A DNA stretch of 64,000 nt from Acidobacteriota bacterium (GCA_965209055.1 OZ242374.1:1248001-1312000), one strand, 5' to 3'. Counted from the first letter of the stretch, positions 15,479 to 22,586 are shown. The notes: generated from the letters alone by a model not told the origin. Numbers and translations are program-made.

Positions 15479-15505
15479 GCGAGAACGGGACTGTCCCCGT
15501 CTCGC
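15479..15505 (+). repeat. REP-like hairpin, copy 1 (GCGAGAACGGGACTGTCCCCGTCTCGC)
   Basis: Stem GCGAG/ACGGG pairs with CCCGT/CTCGC around the core GGGACTGTCCCC. Confidence 0.75.
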
Positions 15506-15619
15506 GCTCTCAAGCCGCGCCGCAGATGGGAATGACGTTTTCTTACAATTAATTTATGACCTTGTAGTCAACGATATCCTGCCGGATCGAGGCGAACGCC
15601 GAAAGGAGGGGGATGGCCG

Positions 15620-16573
15620 ATGATTCCAGAACCACCACACCGCGAATTCCAATTGAAACTCCTCGGTTGGACAGGCCCCGAGGCCGAGTGGATCGCCTTG
15701 GTCTGCCGGCATAGCGGCCTGTTCACCCACTCCCAATTCTGCAGCTACCTGCACGCGCGGCCCCATCGGGCGCGCCGGTTCGTCCGCTGCTTGCGGGATC
15801 GCCGCCAAGCGGTCGAAGAGAATCTGGCCAGTCTGCCGGCTGCCGCCCGGCCCTGCCGGATCTCCGGCAAGGCCATCTACCGCGCCCTGGGCATCGAGAA
15901 CGTGCGCCATCGCCACACCGCCTCGGGTCCCGTCCTGTTGCGGCGGCTTCTGGCCCTTGATTACATCCTGGAGCACCCGCAGGAGCGTTGGCTCACCTCC
16001 GAACAGGGAAAGGTCGCCGTCTTCGATGACTTGGCCATTCCCCGCCAACTCCTCCCCCGCCGCTATTGCACCCGGAAAGAGACGGTCTGGGTCCGGTACT
16101 TTCCCCAGGAGCTCCCCATTTCCATCAGCCCCGGGAAGGCCACTTTCGTCTACGCGGAGTCCGGTTCCGGCAGCGGCGGGAACCTGGTTTCCTGGGGATC
16201 GGCTCACGCGCCACTCTGGCGGGCATTGCAACAGAACGGAATCCGGATCCGGGTCGTGGCCGTCGCCCGCGACGATGCCGGATCGGCACGGGACAATCGG
16301 ATCTTGCGCCGTTGGACCCAGGGGCAATGGCCCAAGGCCTGCCGTCCGCTTGCGTCCGACGAGGAACAGGAGATGGAAGAGATCCGTCTGGCGTTCTTTC
16401 GGAGTGACTGGAAGGCGCTGGAACGTTGGGGCGGACCCCAATCGGCCCTCTTCCACCAACGCGAACTGAAACGCCGGGCGGCGTTCGAGAACACGGAATC
16501 GGGATTCCGGATCGACCGGGCCGACTCCTGGCGCTCACGACGATTGTCGTCCCCGGGGACTGACCCCAGTTGA
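15620..16573 (+). CDS. Uncharacterised 317-aa protein, possibly a winged-helix/replication-relaxation-like mobile element protein
   Basis: AAAGGAGGGG RBS; GWTGPEAEWIALVCRHSGLFT, IYRALG, LRRLLALDYIL and RYFPQELPI blocks; a decayed paralog lies in the same island. The fold assignment is inference. Confidence 0.65.
   Translation: MIPEPPHREFQLKLLGWTGPEAEWIALVCRHSGLFTHSQFCSYLHARPHRARRFVRCLRDRRQAVEENLASLPAAARPCRISGKAIYRALGIENVRHRHTASGPVLLRRLLALDYILEHPQERWLTSEQGKVAVFDDLAIPRQLLPRRYCTRKETVWVRYFPQELPISISPGKATFVYAESGSGSGGNLVSWGSAHAPLWRALQQNGIRIRVVAVARDDAGSARDNRILRRWTQGQWPKACRPLASDEEQEMEEIRLAFFRSDWKALERWGGPQSALFHQRELKRRAAFENTESGFRIDRADSWRSRRLSSPGTDPS
16555..16567 (+). repeat. Variant hairpin copy GGGGACTGACCCC inside the last codons of the 317-aa gene
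   Basis: One mismatch to the GGGACTGTCCCC core; GGGG/CCCC stem. Confidence 0.5.
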
Positions 16574-16606
16574 TTCGCGTTGCGGGCGTCGATTCCGGAG
16601 GCCGCG

Positions 16607-17149
16607 TCAAAATGCGTAGCCCACGGCGACCGTGGAATGCACCGCGGGAATCAACCCGATACGGAGTTCCGGGGCCACGAAGATACGCTTGCTCAAGAAC
16701 AGCCGGAGGCCGAACCCTCCGGTGAAGTTGAAGCTTCCCTCCTTGCGCCACTCGAACTCCGGGAGCGACCGGTCATAGTAATGCTCCACGTTGGGTTCCC
16801 AACTCCGGTACCGGGTGAATCCGAACCCGACCACCAGGTAGGGATTGATGCGCCGATCCGGCGAAAATTCATACTCCACGATTGGAGTCGCCAAGAGGGC
16901 GCGCCTCTTGTAGTACCTGATGTTGCCGAACAGGTTCGCATTCAGGACTTCCACTCCAACCCGGAAATTCCGCCCGGCGGCAACGGTGACGGCTCCGCCG
17001 CCCAGCCAGGCGTGGGGAGGCGTGTCTTCCAGTCCCAGGGTGTAGCCGGCCTCTCCCCGCAGGTTGATCTTGCGTTCCTGCCCGAACATCGGTTGCAGGA
17101 TCAACGACGAGATTGTGACGCAGTACAGGATCACGCGTGCGGTTGTCAT
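16607..17149 (-). CDS. Outer membrane beta-barrel (porin family/OmpW-like) protein
   Basis: Signal peptide, RINPYLVVGFG, GGFGLRLFL, alternating beta-strand pattern and terminal GYAF; GGAGG RBS. Confidence 0.72.
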   Translation of the reverse strand: MTTARVILYCVTISSLILQPMFGQERKINLRGEAGYTLGLEDTPPHAWLGGGAVTVAAGRNFRVGVEVLNANLFGNIRYYKRRALLATPIVEYEFSPDRRINPYLVVGFGFTRYRSWEPNVEHYYDRSLPEFEWRKEGSFNFTGGFGLRLFLSKRIFVAPELRIGLIPAVHSTVAVGYAF

Positions 17150-17160
17150 GGGTGCCTCCT

Positions 17161-17631
17161 TCAGCGGCGTTTCGCAAATCCCAGGTAGACGGAGAAACGA
17201 AGGTTGGGCTCGAGACCCAGTCGGAACTGGGGCGAGATGAAGAATCGGTCATTGGCCCAGACCTTGACTCCCATCCCCCATCCCAGTCCGCCCAGACCGA
17301 GCACGCGGGCGCGATGCCAGTTGATGCCGCCTCCCAGGAGCGTGTAGAGAACGGCGTTGCGCGAGGGTCGCGTCAGGTCCTTGACCAGGTTCATGATCAG
17401 CATGTGGTCCTGATGGGTGTTGTCTGTCATGAACGAATATTCGGGCTCCACGGCCCAGCCCCTCTTCCCGAAGTAGTAGCGGCAGGAGGCTCCGGCCGCG
17501 ACGTGCCGGCGAGCCTCCCAGAAACTCGCGGTCCCGAAGTGGAAACGGAGTTCCGGCGCGCGCGGTTGCGCCTCCAGCGACGGGCAGGCGAAGACGATCA
17601 TCAAAATGGAAATGCGTCCGGCGACCTTCAT
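17161..17631 (-). CDS. Outer membrane beta-barrel protein, paralog of the adjacent gene
   Basis: Signal peptide; GMGVKVWANDRFFISPQFRLG resembles GFGLRLFLSKRIFVAPELRIG of the neighbour. Confidence 0.65.
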   Translation of the reverse strand: MKVAGRISILMIVFACPSLEAQPRAPELRFHFGTASFWEARRHVAAGASCRYYFGKRGWAVEPEYSFMTDNTHQDHMLIMNLVKDLTRPSRNAVLYTLLGGGINWHRARVLGLGGLGWGMGVKVWANDRFFISPQFRLGLEPNLRFSVYLGFAKRR

Positions 17632-17784
17632 ATCGATCCTCCCGCGAAACGACGGCTACCGGTAAATGTGATTTTTCCGCCTGAGTTGGCTCACGGAGTT
17701 CGTTCAGGTGAGAACCGTCCGGAGGGTGCGAATGTTGTCACCGGCTGGAGCCGCGGGAGGAATCCGGCGCTGATCCTGACGCGT

Positions 17785-17815
17785 GCGCGAGAAAGTGACT
17801 GTCCCTTTTTCGTGC
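17785..17815 (+). repeat. REP-like hairpin copy (GCGCGAGAAAGTGACTGTCCCTTTTTCGTGC)
   Basis: Core GTGACTGTCCC at 17795-17805 with complementary flanks. Confidence 0.75.
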
Positions 17816-17889
17816 GCCACTCTGCGCGTCACAACGGGGAGATTCTGGGAGAGCGCGAGCGATTCTGTACCTTGGATTAGTAGCATCGG

Positions 17890-18066
17890 CGTCTGGCGGA
17901 TGCCGACAATGCTGAGCAGATTCTCCTTGGTAGCCGCGCCTTGCGCGACGAGGGCCGCGACGGCGCGGCCCACCTTCTTTTGGTGGCGACCCAGAAAGCT
18001 TGGCTACTGCGGCGGGGTGAAGACACCGCCGTGGTGGCAGGCCAGGGCAATCAGTTCGGTTCAGCC
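17890..18066 (-). pseudogene. Decayed N-terminal fragment of a paralog of the 15620..16573 protein
   Basis: Translates [48 protein letters not shown] versus GWT..EWIALVCRHSGLFTHSQFCSYL..RARRFVRCL..QAVEENL; stops at 18061-18063 and 18004-18006. Confidence 0.7.
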
Positions 18067-18248
18067 GGATCGTGGACGCCTACCACATTTGGCGGACGGG
18101 AATGGAGGACGGCGGCGCAGATGTTCCGGGCTTCTGCAAGGGCACCTTCCTGGTCGAGGTGCGCAAGCACGGTCACGTCCTTATGCCGGGTCGCTATGTT
18201 AATGTGGAGCCATAAAAGGATGGCGGTGAGCCGTTCGAGGAGAATCTG
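18066..18248 (+). pseudogene. hsdM: C-terminal remnant of type I restriction-modification methyltransferase HsdM
   Basis: Translates [10 protein letters not shown]...[42 protein letters not shown], matching the HsdM C-terminal YHxWR/DVPGFCK/HVLTPGRYVG/DDGEPFEE consensus; internal TAA at 18213-18215. Confidence 0.8.
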
Positions 18249-18433
18249 GTTGCGGTGAGGTTTCAGCCTTTGGCCATGGACGAATGACCAGCTATGCCAT
18301 TCTGCGATCCGCCGCTCGAGTGGTCGGATGGGCAAGGATCTCTCGGAACGGGGCTGCTCCTCGGCACACCCCCTGTTAAACAGTTCCGGTCGCGCAGCAT
18401 CCTACAGTCTAACCGAATCTTAGACGATAGCCC

Positions 18434-18925
18434 ATGGTCGGATACTACACTGACGACGAACTCCGACAACTTCGTGAGCTTCGTAAGAAGGTTACGAATC
18501 CAGGAGCCCGCTGGTCCGAGAAGCCTTCACGAAGTCCGGTCCACAAGCAGCGTACCTTCCAAGCAAGGGGAACCACTTCAGACGGCCGAGAATACCGCTT
18601 CCTGGTCTATCAGCGGGAAAATCTTCGCGACAAGCTCAGTTACTCCTGCGGGATCGTCTACCTGCCGCCAGGTGGTCCGCGGCTCACGCTGGCCCGGTAC
18701 AATGGGCCGAGCCATCAGCATGGAGACATCCGTTACAAACCTCACATTCATCGAACCACGGAGGCTGCCATCTCGGCGGGAAGGAAACCAGAACACGCGG
18801 CCGAAGGAACTCTGCGCTACAACACCCTTGAGGGTGCGCTCGCATGTCTAATCGAAGATTTTAGCCTGTCTGGAGTACGCGCCAGACGCGATCATCCGAG
18901 CTTGTTCAATGGCCATCAATCCTGA
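18434..18925 (+). CDS. Hypothetical protein with His-rich motif (DUF6978/DUF6516-like)
   Basis: LARYNGPSHQH...PHIH motif; overlaps the downstream DUF1828-like gene. Confidence 0.6.
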   Translation: MVGYYTDDELRQLRELRKKVTNPGARWSEKPSRSPVHKQRTFQARGTTSDGREYRFLVYQRENLRDKLSYSCGIVYLPPGGPRLTLARYNGPSHQHGDIRYKPHIHRTTEAAISAGRKPEHAAEGTLRYNTLEGALACLIEDFSLSGVRARRDHPSLFNGHQS

Positions 18926-19688
18926 CGACATCCAGCGGCGACTCTGCGACCAGCTCTGCGCGGTCGTTCGCGTGGAGCAACGTTCCGATGGCGAGCTCAT
19001 GCTCGCTACTGATTTCGAGTTCCCCGATGGGGACCGCTACCCGATCTACCTGTCGGAAACCCCGGGCGGCGTCCGCCTATCCGACAGGGGCGACACGTTG
19101 ATGCGCATAAGCTACGATCATGATATCGAGGCCTTCCTTGCCGGAAGTCGCGGGCTCCTTATCGAGCGCATTCTCGGTGAGGAACGAGTGGACCAAACCC
19201 GAGGCATATTCTACCTGGATACACCCACCGACCGTCTTTCTAGTGCCCTCTTTCGGTACGGCCGCGCCCTCACCCGGATTTACGACCTCACTCTCCACTC
19301 GCGGTCACGGGCCGTCACCACGTTTTACGATGACCTCGCGGACCTAATCCTCCAGACAGCCGAGGAAGAACAGATCCAGCGCGATCACCTTCTGCCCGAC
19401 ATTCCGAACTCGGAGGCCTATCCGATCGATTATCGATTTGAGGGGAAGAGTGGTGGACAGGTTTTCCTGTATGGAATTCCGAATCGAGACAAGGCCCGTC
19501 TGACCACGATCATCCTGTCCCACTTTCACCGAATTCACTTGGATTTCGACTCGATTCTAGTGTTCAACGATCAGGCCGAAATCCCCCGGATGGACTTGGC
19601 TAGACTCTCGGATGTGGGAGGAGACCAAGTCTCGTCGCTAGCGTCGATTGAAGACCTGCGCCGAAAGATGGAACGGCGAATCGCGTAA
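18909..19688 (+). CDS. DUF1828/DUF1829-like protein with a possible C-terminal PD-(D/E)XK-like domain
   Basis: TDFEFPDGDRYPIYL, VRLSDRGDTLMRISY, TFYDDL and YPIDYRF blocks. Confidence 0.7.
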   Translation: MAINPDDIQRRLCDQLCAVVRVEQRSDGELMLATDFEFPDGDRYPIYLSETPGGVRLSDRGDTLMRISYDHDIEAFLAGSRGLLIERILGEERVDQTRGIFYLDTPTDRLSSALFRYGRALTRIYDLTLHSRSRAVTTFYDDLADLILQTAEEEQIQRDHLLPDIPNSEAYPIDYRFEGKSGGQVFLYGIPNRDKARLTTIILSHFHRIHLDFDSILVFNDQAEIPRMDLARLSDVGGDQVSSLASIEDLRRKMERRIA

Positions 19689-20134
19689 TTCCGGCGGGGT
19701 GACGACGCAGACTGGACTTGAGGAACCTCGGGATGCTGAGGAACCGACCAGATGGTCTATGGAGCCACACCAGAACTTCACAAACGAAGCTTGATTGTTG
19801 CTCGTAAAGCGACTGCAACACCCCAAGCATAGTTGTTGATACCGGCCAGTGTGTTTTCCGCCCCGCCGCGAGGCGCTGGCGACCCTCGCACCACCCAGAT
19901 CGACGACCGGAACCGCCGACACGCCGAACTCTCCATAGCGATCCATCCCGCCGTCGGTCGAAGACTTCGTGAGCCTTTCGCTGCCGAAGGAACCGTGTCG
20001 TGAGAGTCGCAAGGGTTCTCGATGGCTATTGACACACCCAAGACTCTTCCATTTGGGAGTTCATGACGGTACGGTTGTTTCCCACCCTGTCTGCTACCTC
20101 AGCGGTCAATTCCCCGGACATTCAGGGGGAAAAC

Positions 20135-20196
20135 CTGACTGTCCCCATCCCGTGTTTCCGCGCGTCTCGACGCGACGTGACTGTCCCCGTCTCGCG
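20135..20196 (+). repeat. Two copies of the GACTGTCCCC motif (20135-20146; 20177-20188 followed by GTCTCGCG)
   Basis: CTGACTGTCCCC and GTGACTGTCCCCGTCTCGCG, 42 nt apart. Confidence 0.72.
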
Positions 20197-20257
20197 ACGA
20201 ACGGTTACGCGCCAGGACTACCTCGGCTTCGCGCTGGGCGTTGTGAAACAACGAAGG

Positions 20258-21751
20258 TCAGAATGTAGCCCGCAGCCCGGGTGAGCGCGGCTCGAGCATC
20301 ATGTGCAGACCGTAGCGCGGGCGAAGGGTAATCCCGCCTTGCGCTTCAACCCGGTGTCCGGGCGCCATACGCAGGCGATAGGCGCGGGCGATGGTGGCAA
20401 GCACCATGCACGCCTCCATCATGGCAAAGCCCCTACCGATACAGATGCGCGGACCGCCGCCGAAGGGCAAATACGCGAAACGATGACGTGCCTTGACCCG
20501 ATCAGGTGTGAACCGCTCGGGATCGAAGCGTAGCGGATCCTCCCACAGCCTCGGATTGCGGTGGGTGAGGTAGGGACTGATCGTCACCACGCTGCCGGCA
20601 CGAATGGCGTGCCCCCCGACCTCGTCGTCCGCGACCGCCACGCGATTGAAAGCGTGGCCCGGCGGAAACAACCGCATCGCCTCCTGGATGACCATTCGGG
20701 TATAGGGCAGCGCTTGGACGTCAGCGAACGTCGTCTCCCCTTCGCCCAGCACACGGTCCACCTCGTCGTGCAGCGCGCGTTCGATGCCGGGATGTCGCGA
20801 CAGCAGGTACAGCGTCCACGTTAGGGCCAGCGCCGTCGTCTCATGTCCGGCGGAGAAGAACGTGAGGACCTCGTTGCGGAGCTGCCGGTCCGTCATCCCC
20901 TCGCCGGTCTCGTCGTCGCGCGCGGCGAGGAGCAAACCCAACAGATCTTCAGGACCGTGCTGGGTGGCGCGTCGTGAAGCGATGATGCCGTAGACCATCC
21001 GGTCGAGCCGAGCCAGCGCTGAGCGGGTGCGGTGCGAGCGCCATCGTGGGATCCATGCCGGGAGGCCGAGAAGGTCGAGCGGATTCGGCGTGCCCAGGGA
21101 CGCAAGGAGTGTCGTCATCGCCCGCCCCAGCTCATCTATCGAGTTGGCAATCTGGCTGGAGAACAGCGCCTCGGCGACGATCTCCATCGTGAGCGACATC
21201 ATTTCGTGGGCGATGTCGAGGCGTTCTCCCCTCTCACACGGCATGCGCCAGCGTTCGATGCGCTGCCGCGCGCGACGCACCATCACATGGGCTACCTGCG
21301 CAAGGTGCTGGTGATGGAAGGCGGGGGCCATGATGCGGCGCTGGCGGCGCCAGAAGTCGCCCTCGCTGATCACCAGGTTGTTGCCCAGAGCCCACTCAAG
21401 AATCTGGCGGGCGAGGTGTCCCTTGACATAGTTCTGGCGGTTGGTGACGAGGATGCGCTCGATGAAATCGGGTTCATTGAGGAGAACGAAGTTGTGAAAA
21501 AGAAGCCGTACTTCGCTGAAGTCGGCGACGAAAGAGTCGCGGGTGTACACGGACAGTTGGTTGTCGCGCAGCAAACGGAGGAACTGGATCAGCTTGACTC
21601 TCTCAGCCAGCGGTTCGGGTACAACGCCTGGTTCATAGGCGACTGCGGGGTGAACTGCCGTCATCGTCGCGTCAACTCCATCTGGACGGCTGGAGCCTCC
21701 AGAAGCAGCGTGTTGCCCCGCTTCCTCGGGACGAGCCGAATGAGTCTTCAC
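20258..21751 (-). CDS. Cytochrome P450
   Basis: AGHETT (I-helix), EAMR (ExxR), FDPERF and FGGGPRICIG heme-binding motif; the true start may be ATG 21664. Confidence 0.93.
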   Translation of the reverse strand: MKTHSARPEEAGQHAASGGSSRPDGVDATMTAVHPAVAYEPGVVPEPLAERVKLIQFLRLLRDNQLSVYTRDSFVADFSEVRLLFHNFVLLNEPDFIERILVTNRQNYVKGHLARQILEWALGNNLVISEGDFWRRQRRIMAPAFHHQHLAQVAHVMVRRARQRIERWRMPCERGERLDIAHEMMSLTMEIVAEALFSSQIANSIDELGRAMTTLLASLGTPNPLDLLGLPAWIPRWRSHRTRSALARLDRMVYGIIASRRATQHGPEDLLGLLLAARDDETGEGMTDRQLRNEVLTFFSAGHETTALALTWTLYLLSRHPGIERALHDEVDRVLGEGETTFADVQALPYTRMVIQEAMRLFPPGHAFNRVAVADDEVGGHAIRAGSVVTISPYLTHRNPRLWEDPLRFDPERFTPDRVKARHRFAYLPFGGGPRICIGRGFAMMEACMVLATIARAYRLRMAPGHRVEAQGGITLRPRYGLHMMLEPRSPGLRATF

Positions 21752-21933
21752 ATTGTAATTTAGTCGGGAACCAGGATCACGTCAGGCAGCCGACCGGCGA
21801 AGCGCAACGCGACCCGGTGCCGGGCAATAGGAAATGGTGGACTCCATTTCGCCGTGAATGCGAGCGGCCTCTCCGGCGCGAGCGGCCTACAAGGGGAAGG
21901 GTCGGCAACCGGGCGGTCGGGGGGCAAGCCGTC

Positions 21934-22005
21934 TGCCGCGCGCCCGAGAAAGTGACTGTCCCCGTCTCGTGCCGCGTGCCCGAGAAAGTGACTGTCCCCG
22001 TCTCG
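21934..22005 (+). repeat. 36-bp tandem duplication carrying two hairpin motif copies
   Basis: TGCCGCG(C/T)GCCCGAGAAAGTGACTGTCCCCGTCTCG twice, with one mismatch. Confidence 0.85.
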
Positions 22006-22023
22006 TTTGCCAGACTGTCGAGC

Positions 22024-22488
22024 ATGAAAGACCTGCAGGTACGGACTGAACCCATTCGGATCGAAGCACCGGTCGGATTGGTCTGGCAGGTTCTGACGGA
22101 CGTTGAAAGATACGGCGAGTGGAATCCGTTCACACCGCATGTACGGACCGATTTCGAGATCGGTTCGCCAGCCCATCTGCTGGTCAGGATGGGGCCGGCG
22201 AAGGTGCGAATCACCGAGACCGTCTCCGCGTTCGAAGCACCCCGGCTCATTGCTTGGGGCAAGGTATTCGGAGCGCGCTGGCTCCTGGCTGCATTGCGGG
22301 AGCAGCATCTGGAACCCGTGAGCGAGACGAGCTGCCGTTACCACAACACGGACCGATTGACCGGTCTGCTTGCGCCGCTGGTGTTGCTTTGTTCCGGCGG
22401 TTATATGCGTACCGGTTTCACCGATGTCGGGCAGGGGTTGAGGCGTCAATCGGAGGCGCTTTACAAGAAGTCGAAGCCACGTGGCTGA
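22024..22488 (+). CDS. SRPBCC (START/polyketide cyclase) domain protein
   Basis: IRIEAPVGLVWQVLTDVERYGEWNPF signature; start ATG 22024. Confidence 0.8.
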   Translation: MKDLQVRTEPIRIEAPVGLVWQVLTDVERYGEWNPFTPHVRTDFEIGSPAHLLVRMGPAKVRITETVSAFEAPRLIAWGKVFGARWLLAALREQHLEPVSETSCRYHNTDRLTGLLAPLVLLCSGGYMRTGFTDVGQGLRRQSEALYKKSKPRG

Positions 22489-22586
22489 CGATTCTCGAAG
22501 GGAAGCACCGAGTGCTCGAAGCGCATGGCAACCTGCAGGCCGGTTGCAAACGCATCGTCAAGCAGGGCACCTTCGGGGGATGAGAT

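Follow-up and report, generated by a model that had tools for sequence, protein, structure and literature searches.

The locus described here raises a simple question: where do the short, co-oriented repeats come from that lie at the joints of unrelated genes in an island beside a tRNA gene, and what do they do there? The window, i.e. the whole stretch of DNA that was analysed, comprises 64 kb (G000:C1:1248001-1312000) of the 6.08-Mb single-contig genome G000 of an Acidobacteriota bacterium (62.8% G+C). Window positions carry the prefix w, and G001-G008 designate eight congeners of G000. The repeat has the core GACTGTCCCC. Most likely, the GACTGTCCCC elements are end-repeats of a HUH-Y1 transposase of the RayT/TIRYT type that are dispersed in the genome without the gene, and the window copies are orphans in a hypervariable island. 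There, they probably act as recombination or insertion hot spots, that is, as breakpoints.

Exact GACTGTCCCC is found at w15489, w20137, w20179, w21954 and w21990. These are five copies within 6.5 kb, all on the + strand, compared to 0.27 expected in the window, and none of 100 dinucleotide shuffles reached five. As the earlier note on this DNA had stated, an exact-match scan found no further copy in the rest of the 64 kb. The 17-mer GAGAAMGKGACTGTCCC occurs four times (w15481, w17789, w21946, w21982), with 0.00 expected. Matches with one mismatch are at chance level in the window (11 found, 9.5 expected) and the 8-mer background is large (314 copies), as it would be if a G+C-rich 10-mer simply recurred in a G+C-rich genome. 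The exact-copy and 17-mer counts, an about 5-fold enrichment in the genome and a near-zero reversed control (see below) refute this explanation, whose probability is close to nil.

Copies with one mismatch are located at w17797 (GACTGTCCCT) and w16558 (GACTGACCCC). The former carries the 17-mer GAGAAMGKGACTGTCCC and is therefore counted in the repeat family. The latter (w16558-16567, + strand) was rejected as a member: It lies within the C-terminal codons of a 317-aa open reading frame (ORF), lacks the 17-mer arm and reads GACCGACCCC in the closest congener. From the seven same-strand cores initially listed, the five exact copies and the w17797 variant remain, while the variant given at w16555 is this coding sequence; the sites are real, with positions that were 2-3 nt too low.

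Copy 1 (CGAGAACGG-GACTGTCCCC-GTCTCG; w15480-15504, +) is located between a GFO/IDH/MocA gene and the 317-aa ORF. Copy 2 (GCGCGAGAAAGT-GACTGTCCCT-TTTTCGTGCGC; w17786-17818, +) forms the left end of a G000-specific segment. Copy 3 (GGGGGAAAACCT-GACTGTCCCC-ATCCCGTGTTTCC; w20126-20159, +) is followed by copy 4 (CGCGACGT-GACTGTCCCC-GTCTCGCG; w20166-20196, +), which adjoins the 3' end of a P450 gene. Copies 5 and 6 are a 36-bp tandem duplication of CCGAGAAAGT-GACTGTCCCC-GTCTCG (w21945-22006, +) that ends 18 nt before the start codon of an SRPBCC gene. One repeat at this position is retained in G001 and G008.

The motif is not special to this locus. G000 contains 118 exact copies at 73 loci, 65 on the + and 53 on the - strand, with about 12 expected per strand from base composition. 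This spread over both strands is one half of what the earlier note had named as speaking against its own proposal, an integron-like platform. For the 9-mer, 95 of 185 copies are outside predicted genes, in a genome of which intergenic DNA makes up only 13%. The gene map was made with a home-made codon-score caller that miscalled a tandem array at 1.752 Mb as coding, so that the share of intergenic copies is a lower bound. The orientation of the 9-mer relative to neighbouring genes follows no rule (27, 27, 25 and 16 copies in the four classes). Of the 18 multi-copy clusters (copies within 3 kb), 17 are co-oriented. This means, co-orientation is a general habit of the repeat family and not peculiar to the window locus. 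A bias towards the leading or lagging strand was not found (36 vs 37 clusters; the GC skew of G000 is weak).

Beyond G000, the 12-mer GTGACTGTCCCC is present in 17-66 copies in each of the eight congeners and in 20 copies in G023, which belongs to another family, and is at background in the sister genus (0-3 copies). The reversed 12-mer used as control occurs 0 times in the eight congeners and 0-1 times across these plus G023. The 12-mer counts and the RayT matches reported below were taken over 31 genomes, among them the unpublished G016, on which no claim rests. In a scan of a species collection, AAAGGGGACAGTCACC...GGTGACTGTCCCCTTT was found as inverted pairs in metagenome-assembled genomes (MAGs) labelled Gammaproteobacteria, Allosphingosinicella, Hyphomicrobiaceae, Vicinamibacterales and Acidobacteriota. 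Since single 14-mer matches are expected by chance, only paired ones were relied on. In a full-text literature search for the motif strings, no relevant paper was among the matches listed, which concerned primers or eukaryotic sequences.

Two further observations concern the distribution in G000. The array at 1.752 Mb (G000:C1:1751934-1752488) is a 550-bp tandem array of 16 exact cores plus variants with a period of 25-30 bp, about 10 kb away from a RayT pseudogene. In addition, motif copies with identical 60-nt contexts occur at mirrored positions in the regions 84-139 kb and 516-571 kb of G000:C1. This suggests that a large stretch of at least 55 kb is duplicated in inverted orientation, unless the assembly is faulty here; G000 has a contamination rating of 7.4%.

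Which enzyme could belong to this repeat? A Pfam Y1_Tnp search of G000 yielded a match at 3.751 Mb, in a frame that contains GNHYHLIV (HUH motif) and LYVELNAVRAGL (tyrosine motif). Copies of GGGACAGTC flank the gene on one side, and copies of GACTGTCCCC on the opposite side. The called RayT-like protein has 311 aa and scores 36.8 bits with Y1_Tnp (cut-off 23), and the NCBIfam equivalog REP_Tyr_transpos matches its residues 64-239 (E 6.9e-14). In an alignment of 24 homologs, H63 and H65 (NHYH) as well as Y162 (YVELNA) are the same in all 24. Six of the 120 homologs listed carry the JGI name 'REP element-mobilizing transposase RayT'. G000 encodes six RayT-like paralogs that are 72-82% identical; one contains two stop codons, and all six lie outside the window. 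Profile searches of the genome confirmed that the window holds neither an integrase nor a RAYT (a tyrosine transposase linked to repetitive extragenic palindromes, REPs). The guess that an HUH/Y1 enzyme acts in trans is supported by the six paralogs and by the inverted motif copies that bracket their genes; such motif-flanked genes, which the earlier note had proposed to look for, were found in G000 and at related loci.

Each congener has 3-13 RayT matches. The copies in G023 are 76% identical, whereas homologs in the sister genus are only 44-56% identical. Copies with at least 70% identity are present in all eight congeners and in G023, i.e. in the genomes rich in GTGACTGTCCCC. High-identity RayT and the motif occur together across genomes. 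The RayT unit at 3.75 Mb is found in G000, G002, G003 and G004, and the same site is empty in G001, G005, G006 and G007. In G000, this 2.3-kb unit is bounded by a diverged, about 60-bp duplication of the 3' end of the upstream gene (L209:5750-5815 and L209:8040-8106), the right-hand duplicate of which resembles the allele of congeners without the insert. The second Y1_Tnp match in G000 (1.143 Mb, L130) was discarded as partner, as it has no core nearby.

The link between gene and repeat was assessed at 51 loci encoding RayT relatives (53 returned minus the fragments L186 and L187 of 48 and 35 aa, respectively). In the 1.5-kb upstream flanks, GACTGTCC occurs 79 times in reverse complement and 7 times in forward orientation, and in the 1.5-kb downstream flanks 107 times in forward and 9 times in reverse orientation. 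At 39 of the 51 loci, reverse copies upstream are combined with forward copies downstream. The G000 paralogs at 3.75, 1.74, 5.16 and 4.99 Mb are flanked in this inverted pattern. The consensus is GGAAAAACA-GACTGTCCCC-TTCT for the upstream end and GGGAATCGA-GACTGTCCC-TTTCC for the downstream end, and each end is usually an array of 1-8 direct repeats spaced 25-70 bp apart. In other phyla, the same core was detected on both sides of the gene at three (L189, L190, L197) of ten Y1 loci fetched from five motif-bearing genomes. These core-flanked Y1 homologs, with about 40% identity, are encoded by a gammaproteobacterial MAG and an Allosphingosinicella MAG.

These features resemble systems described before; the comparisons with published work draw on portions of the cited papers. 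RAYT-like genes with terminal inverted repeats (TIRs) were named TIRtrons or TIRYTs, and many of their TIRs share GGGGWSAS (Di Nocera et al., 2013; PMC3733652). Some TIR families are moderately abundant, dispersed and present as dimers or clusters; one sharply delimited group is acidobacterial (PMC3733652). Quentin et al. (2018; PMC6006769) give the consensus GGGG[AT][CG]A[CG] and equate their subclass 2.1 probably with the TIRYTs. The reverse complement of the core, GGGGACAG, fits GGGGWSAS. Likewise shared are an HUH-Y1 gene with inverted flanking repeats, a dispersed repeat family in clusters (18 multi-copy clusters) and the acidobacterial group. In contrast to TIRYTs, 3-13 diverged paralogs are found per genome, and the ends are direct-repeat arrays instead of one long TIR. 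TIRYTs of subclass 2.1 have a C-terminal helix-turn-helix (HTH) extension (Bac_DnaA_C, HTH_23 or HTH_28). Here, Pfam at E up to 0.1 found only Y1_Tnp on the 369-aa frame, whose tail of about 130 aa was judged by sequence profile alone. Subclass 2.3 (NHYH, YVDLNP, 325 aa, 3.9 copies), for which the portion of Quentin et al. (2018) used here reports no repeats, looks closer to the protein described here by the printed signatures, on which this comparison is based: NHYH, YVELNA, about 100 aa from HUH to Y, about 311 aa and several copies. This repeat may already be listed in the figures or supplements of PMC3733652 or PMC6006769.

In the REPIN-RAYT or REPtron systems of Pseudomonas and Enterobacteria, a Y1 gene is flanked by its own short, dispersed extragenic repeat (PMC3116915, PMC2817692, PMC5581495). 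The common features are the HUH-Y1 partner with HUH motif and catalytic tyrosine and the inverted repeat copies that flank its gene. As far as these sources describe them, the repeats differ in that a GTAG head is lacking here and the hairpin potential is weak. The copies found here are mostly single or in direct arrays and not in inverted doublets. RayT is multi-copy with at least one copy present or absent at an orthologous site, and not single-copy and vertically kept as in groups 2 and 3 of Bertels. Elements of the IS200/IS605 type share HUH-Y1 chemistry on single-stranded DNA, but have subterminal hairpins on one strand at both ends and near-identical copies, whereas inverted flanks and paralogs of 72-82% identity are found here. 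The Ssn (GIY-YIG)/NTS-SRM system (PMC11893778) is similar in that clusters of a dispersed short repeat are located at accessory genes and flank the gene of a single-strand-specific enzyme. It was rejected: The SRM motif (HGTCWY...) and the enzyme family, as given in that source, differ, and the three GIY-YIG matches in G000 are each at least 50 kb away from an exact copy.

Could the repeats instead act on transcripts, as terminators, mRNA-stabilising hairpins or operator sites, with the RayT link being secondary? They are mostly intergenic. The copies of an island at 2.017-2.022 Mb separate genes that run in one direction; they have the sense orientation and follow the stop codons by 31-106 nt. 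In several congeners, one copy is retained 18-34 nt upstream of the SRPBCC start codon. However, the intergenic copies have no orientation preference (43 sense vs 52 antisense to the upstream gene), and a role as promoter or terminator was rejected because the repeats are not oriented in a uniform way towards the genes beside them. About 15 copies make up a subfamily of their own (GGGGGACAAGACTGTCCCCCC; GGGGGACAAGACTGTCCCCCCTCC), found e.g. at 430560, 777491, 2619217 and 4598625, which forms a strong 10-bp hairpin. Several of its copies are 6 nt from a gene end, which would suit this explanation and resembles a terminator or a classical REP. Most copies, by contrast, fold like shuffles. An Rfam search of w14500-23500 at E up to 5 found the tRNA only. 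Nor does the regulatory reading account for the fact that RayT genes of several phyla have inverted arrays around them, and we regard it as very improbable.

Hairpins had also been proposed for the window copies themselves. Arms of the type CGAGA/TCTCG are indeed common to four of them. DNA folding revealed that only the w15489 copy is clearly more stable than its shuffles (-10.1 kcal/mol, z -3.4), while the other six of the seven window copies are no better than shuffles (z +0.5 to -1.4). Genome-wide, the mean best arm pairing is 4.0 bp, compared to 3.5 +/- 0.1 with the arm of another copy, and 0 of 500 shuffles reached 4.0. Arms pair over at least 5 bp in only about 40% of the 118 exact copies. 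The pairing is mostly due to a common purine-rich 5' arm and a pyrimidine-rich 3' arm and not to copy-specific compensation. The idea that flanks which differ and still pair reflect a conserved structure is therefore weak.

How do orphan end-repeats relate to the variability of the locus? The regions w13200-15478 and w22020-25200 are kept in all eight congeners, and w15479-22019 between them differs in every one. This interval is a hypervariable accessory-gene hot spot between conserved oxidoreductase and SRPBCC genes beside tRNA-Ala. In six of eight congeners, homology does not extend beyond w15476-15485, where the first repeat has its 5' foot; in G004 it stops at w15449, and in G007 it runs through. 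The 317-aa gene (w15620-16573, +) is a variable module, absent from the locus in G001 and G004. Two ORFs for small outer-membrane beta-barrel-like proteins (OMPs; w16607-17134 and w17161-17631, both -), with weak OMP_b-brl matches below cut-off (E 8e-4 and 5e-3), are missing in G002 and G004 and partial or about 70% identical in others. The 4.1-kb segment w17786-21919, which comprises gene fragments, a DUF1828 ORF (w18909-19688) and the P450 gene (w20258-21664, -; Pfam E 1e-88), is present at this locus in G000 only and absent from it in all eight congeners. In G008 and G001, homology extends to w17785; next come 13-22 bp and then the flank of the resident repeat, the counterpart of w21990. 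Therefore, the insert starts exactly at a repeat and ends 34 nt before another one. The right border, an SRPBCC/Polyketide_cyc2 ORF (w22024-22488, +), is present in 8/8 congeners, and tRNA-Ala(CGC) follows (w22587-22663, -). Gene calls and Pfam confirmed the module map of the earlier note (317-aa protein, two OMPs, DUF1828, P450, SRPBCC, tRNA-Ala). Its expectation that module breakpoints in relatives fall at the motif holds for several junctions here and also in another island, at 2.017-2.022 Mb with six co-oriented copies, where blocks of congener homology are bounded by repeats and one block is replaced in G001. In the hot spot, congeners carry other cargo: a gene for a giant leucine-rich repeat (LRR) protein with a nucleotidyltransferase, XRE HTH proteins, a DDE transposase, IrrE/M78 with DUF4411, and an alpha/beta hydrolase.

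Additional forms of the locus were seen in public sequencing runs, which were compared as contigs only, at 90% likeness; for X6 and X9, the interpretation is confined to the parts of the stretch with contig cover. Contigs of X5 (w17783 to w21976) and X6 (w17708 to w21970) skip the 4.1-kb segment. In X1, one contig branch reads w17805 + CATCT + w20161. The DUF1828 part is removed from it, and the joint lies inside the repeat cores w17797 and w20137. The 2.36-kb sub-segment missing from this alternative path (w17806-20160) comprises the fragments and the DUF1828 ORF. Other X6 contigs, 99% alike, cover only the P450 gene and end at about w20230 and w21822, near repeats and not at them. Their word depth is about 435-454 compared to 20 for the contig with the locus flanks; being values for single contigs, these depths were not read as proportions of cells. 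The P450 gene in X6 is probably also present in another, more abundant or multi-copy context.

The array is reminiscent of an integron: It is variable, and short repeats of one orientation mark where unrelated modules meet. However, IntI is lacking in the window, and the repeat is genome-wide and on both strands. By eye, the centre of the repeat is conserved and its arms are variable, whereas in attC sites the outer R boxes are conserved, and the modules have 0, 1 or 2 repeats each. A more specific proposal is a cassette platform in which a RayT paralog would, in trans, cut single-stranded DNA at GACTGTCCC and rejoin it, so that modules are inserted or excised between co-oriented cores, with the HUH enzyme replacing IntI. 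All six credible window copies are on one strand, and so are 22 of 22 GACTG[TA]CC copies in the eight congener loci. The locus exists in nested forms: no insert (G001, G008, X5, X6), P450 only (alternative path of X1) and DUF1828 plus P450 (G000). The joint inside two cores in X1, the start of the 4.1-kb insert exactly at a repeat foot and the presence or absence of the RayT unit at an orthologous site would also agree with it, as would a further X6 contig that places w18662 onwards after w22485, i.e. has the DUF1828 part elsewhere in the locus.

Nested forms and a core joint are the traces expected of such a platform, but ordinary deletion between repeats would leave the same traces, and the core joint can be explained by an enzyme-free event between direct repeats of 9-18 nt. 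A circular or excised form was not seen in these data, and no module was found at a second repeat-bounded site. Two joints in X6 at which a contig goes back are not at repeats, the P450 segment is common to other contigs without a repeat, and G004 holds 5.9 kb of other cargo with no repeat at all. Moreover, the flanks of RayT genes are inverted and not co-oriented. No evidence was found for directed cassette capture, and the integron-like gene capture platform inferred in the earlier note is unsupported and unlikely. If a RayT paralog did work in this way, these bacteria would assemble accessory-gene islands with an HUH-based equivalent of the integron.

With orphan end-repeats of RayT as the favoured explanation, the co-orientation in the window would result from local spread of repeats as direct arrays, as suggested by the tandem pair at w21945-22006. 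The repeats would then be preferred breakpoints for gain or loss of neighbouring DNA. Two routes can be envisaged: RayT might cut and rejoin single strands at the core, or slippage or recombination might occur between identical cores of 9-18 nt. The data are compatible with either enzyme-driven or passive breakpoint formation.

Several observations weigh against this explanation. On the side of the enzyme, the NCBIfam RayT equivalog score of 51.9 bits is below the cut-off of 80, and a PDB search with the RayT protein sequence and profile reached no solved Y1 structure. G021 has six copies of the 12-mer and no RayT match, and seven of the ten Y1 loci in other phyla are without a core nearby. 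The repeats are not classical REPs: The consensus has no GTAG/GTGG head, and hairpins are weak or absent. Of the 118 exact copies, only 10 are within 1.5 kb of a RayT paralog, and therefore, RayT activity on the orphan copies is inferred. At the locus, the right end of the 4.1-kb segment (about w21919) is 34 nt away from the core. The X1 joint is based on a contig with a shorter side of 30 letters at 90% likeness, and the shared P450 segment ends 40-130 nt from repeats and carries none along. Finally, the coincidence of breakpoints and repeats is partly expected, because breakpoints are confined to short spacers and the congeners are not independent.

If the repeats are RayT end-repeats, an unexplained repeat gains a partner enzyme and a place in the TIRYT/RayT end-repeat class. 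The class would then also cover a genus of uncultured Acidobacteriota with several copies of the transposase, whose repeats mark variable islands there. The locus, with three forms that differ by whole modules and one junction inside the core, provides a concrete case in which to study the effect that domesticated-looking HUH transposases may have on their hosts. It could serve to separate enzyme-driven exchange from passive repeat-mediated deletion. On the ordinary reading alone, the gain is one for annotation: With the core GACTGTCCCC (GGGGACAGTC), RayT-type repeats and likely hot spots of rearrangement can be recognised in several phyla.

The 317-aa protein, which had been considered as the enzyme that acts on the repeat, turned out to be a poor candidate. 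It belongs to a family of hypothetical proteins of about 310 aa and has no match in Pfam (up to E 5) or NCBIfam. In an alignment-based structure model (pLDDT 82.8; a single-sequence model with pLDDT 41 was unusable), residues 15-92 resemble a MarR-like winged helix (Z 8.7, 76 residues aligned). For residues 100-309 of the model, the similarity to the nucleases SdaI (Z 7.5, 117 aligned residues) and NucS (Z 7.2) is middling. The protein is therefore predicted to consist of a winged helix and a restriction-endonuclease-like domain; a Foldseek search of the model against the PDB returned nothing at E 0.001 or better. G000 contains five full-length paralogs (478539, 1582321, 1832423, 1992741, 2522630) and six fragments, and none of these 11 has a 9-mer within 2 kb. 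Instead, most copies lie 0.5-2 kb from a match to Phage_integrase, the tyrosine-recombinase family. This suggests that the 317-aa gene in the window is a stranded part of an unnamed integrase-linked mobile element. Phage_integrase has 58 matches in G000 and none in the window; the nearest ones precede the window by 1-4 kb and are about 17-19 kb away from the array. Approximately 25 of the 58 matches score nearly alike (about 93-100 bits), which suggests a proliferated integrase-bearing element.

Some minor observations concern further mobile DNA. A segment of about 110 bp (w19908-20021) recurs at 73-82% identity elsewhere in G000 and in congeners, at one site 3 kb from a 317-aa paralog, and may be the end of an element. 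A 1.9-kb element with a 559-aa ORF, probably an active insertion sequence, has four copies that are 100% identical, one at G000:C1 ~2014793-2016706 and three elsewhere in G000. At the tRNA side of the locus (w22584-22871), congeners carry insertions of 0.6-2.2 kb beside tRNA-Ala (loci L200, L202-L205). These are flanked by a duplication of the whole tRNA gene in G008 and by a duplication of 180 bp of the 3' end of the S58 peptidase gene in G003, G005, G006 and G007. In the latter four genomes, a copy of the repeat is located at the left edge of the insert.

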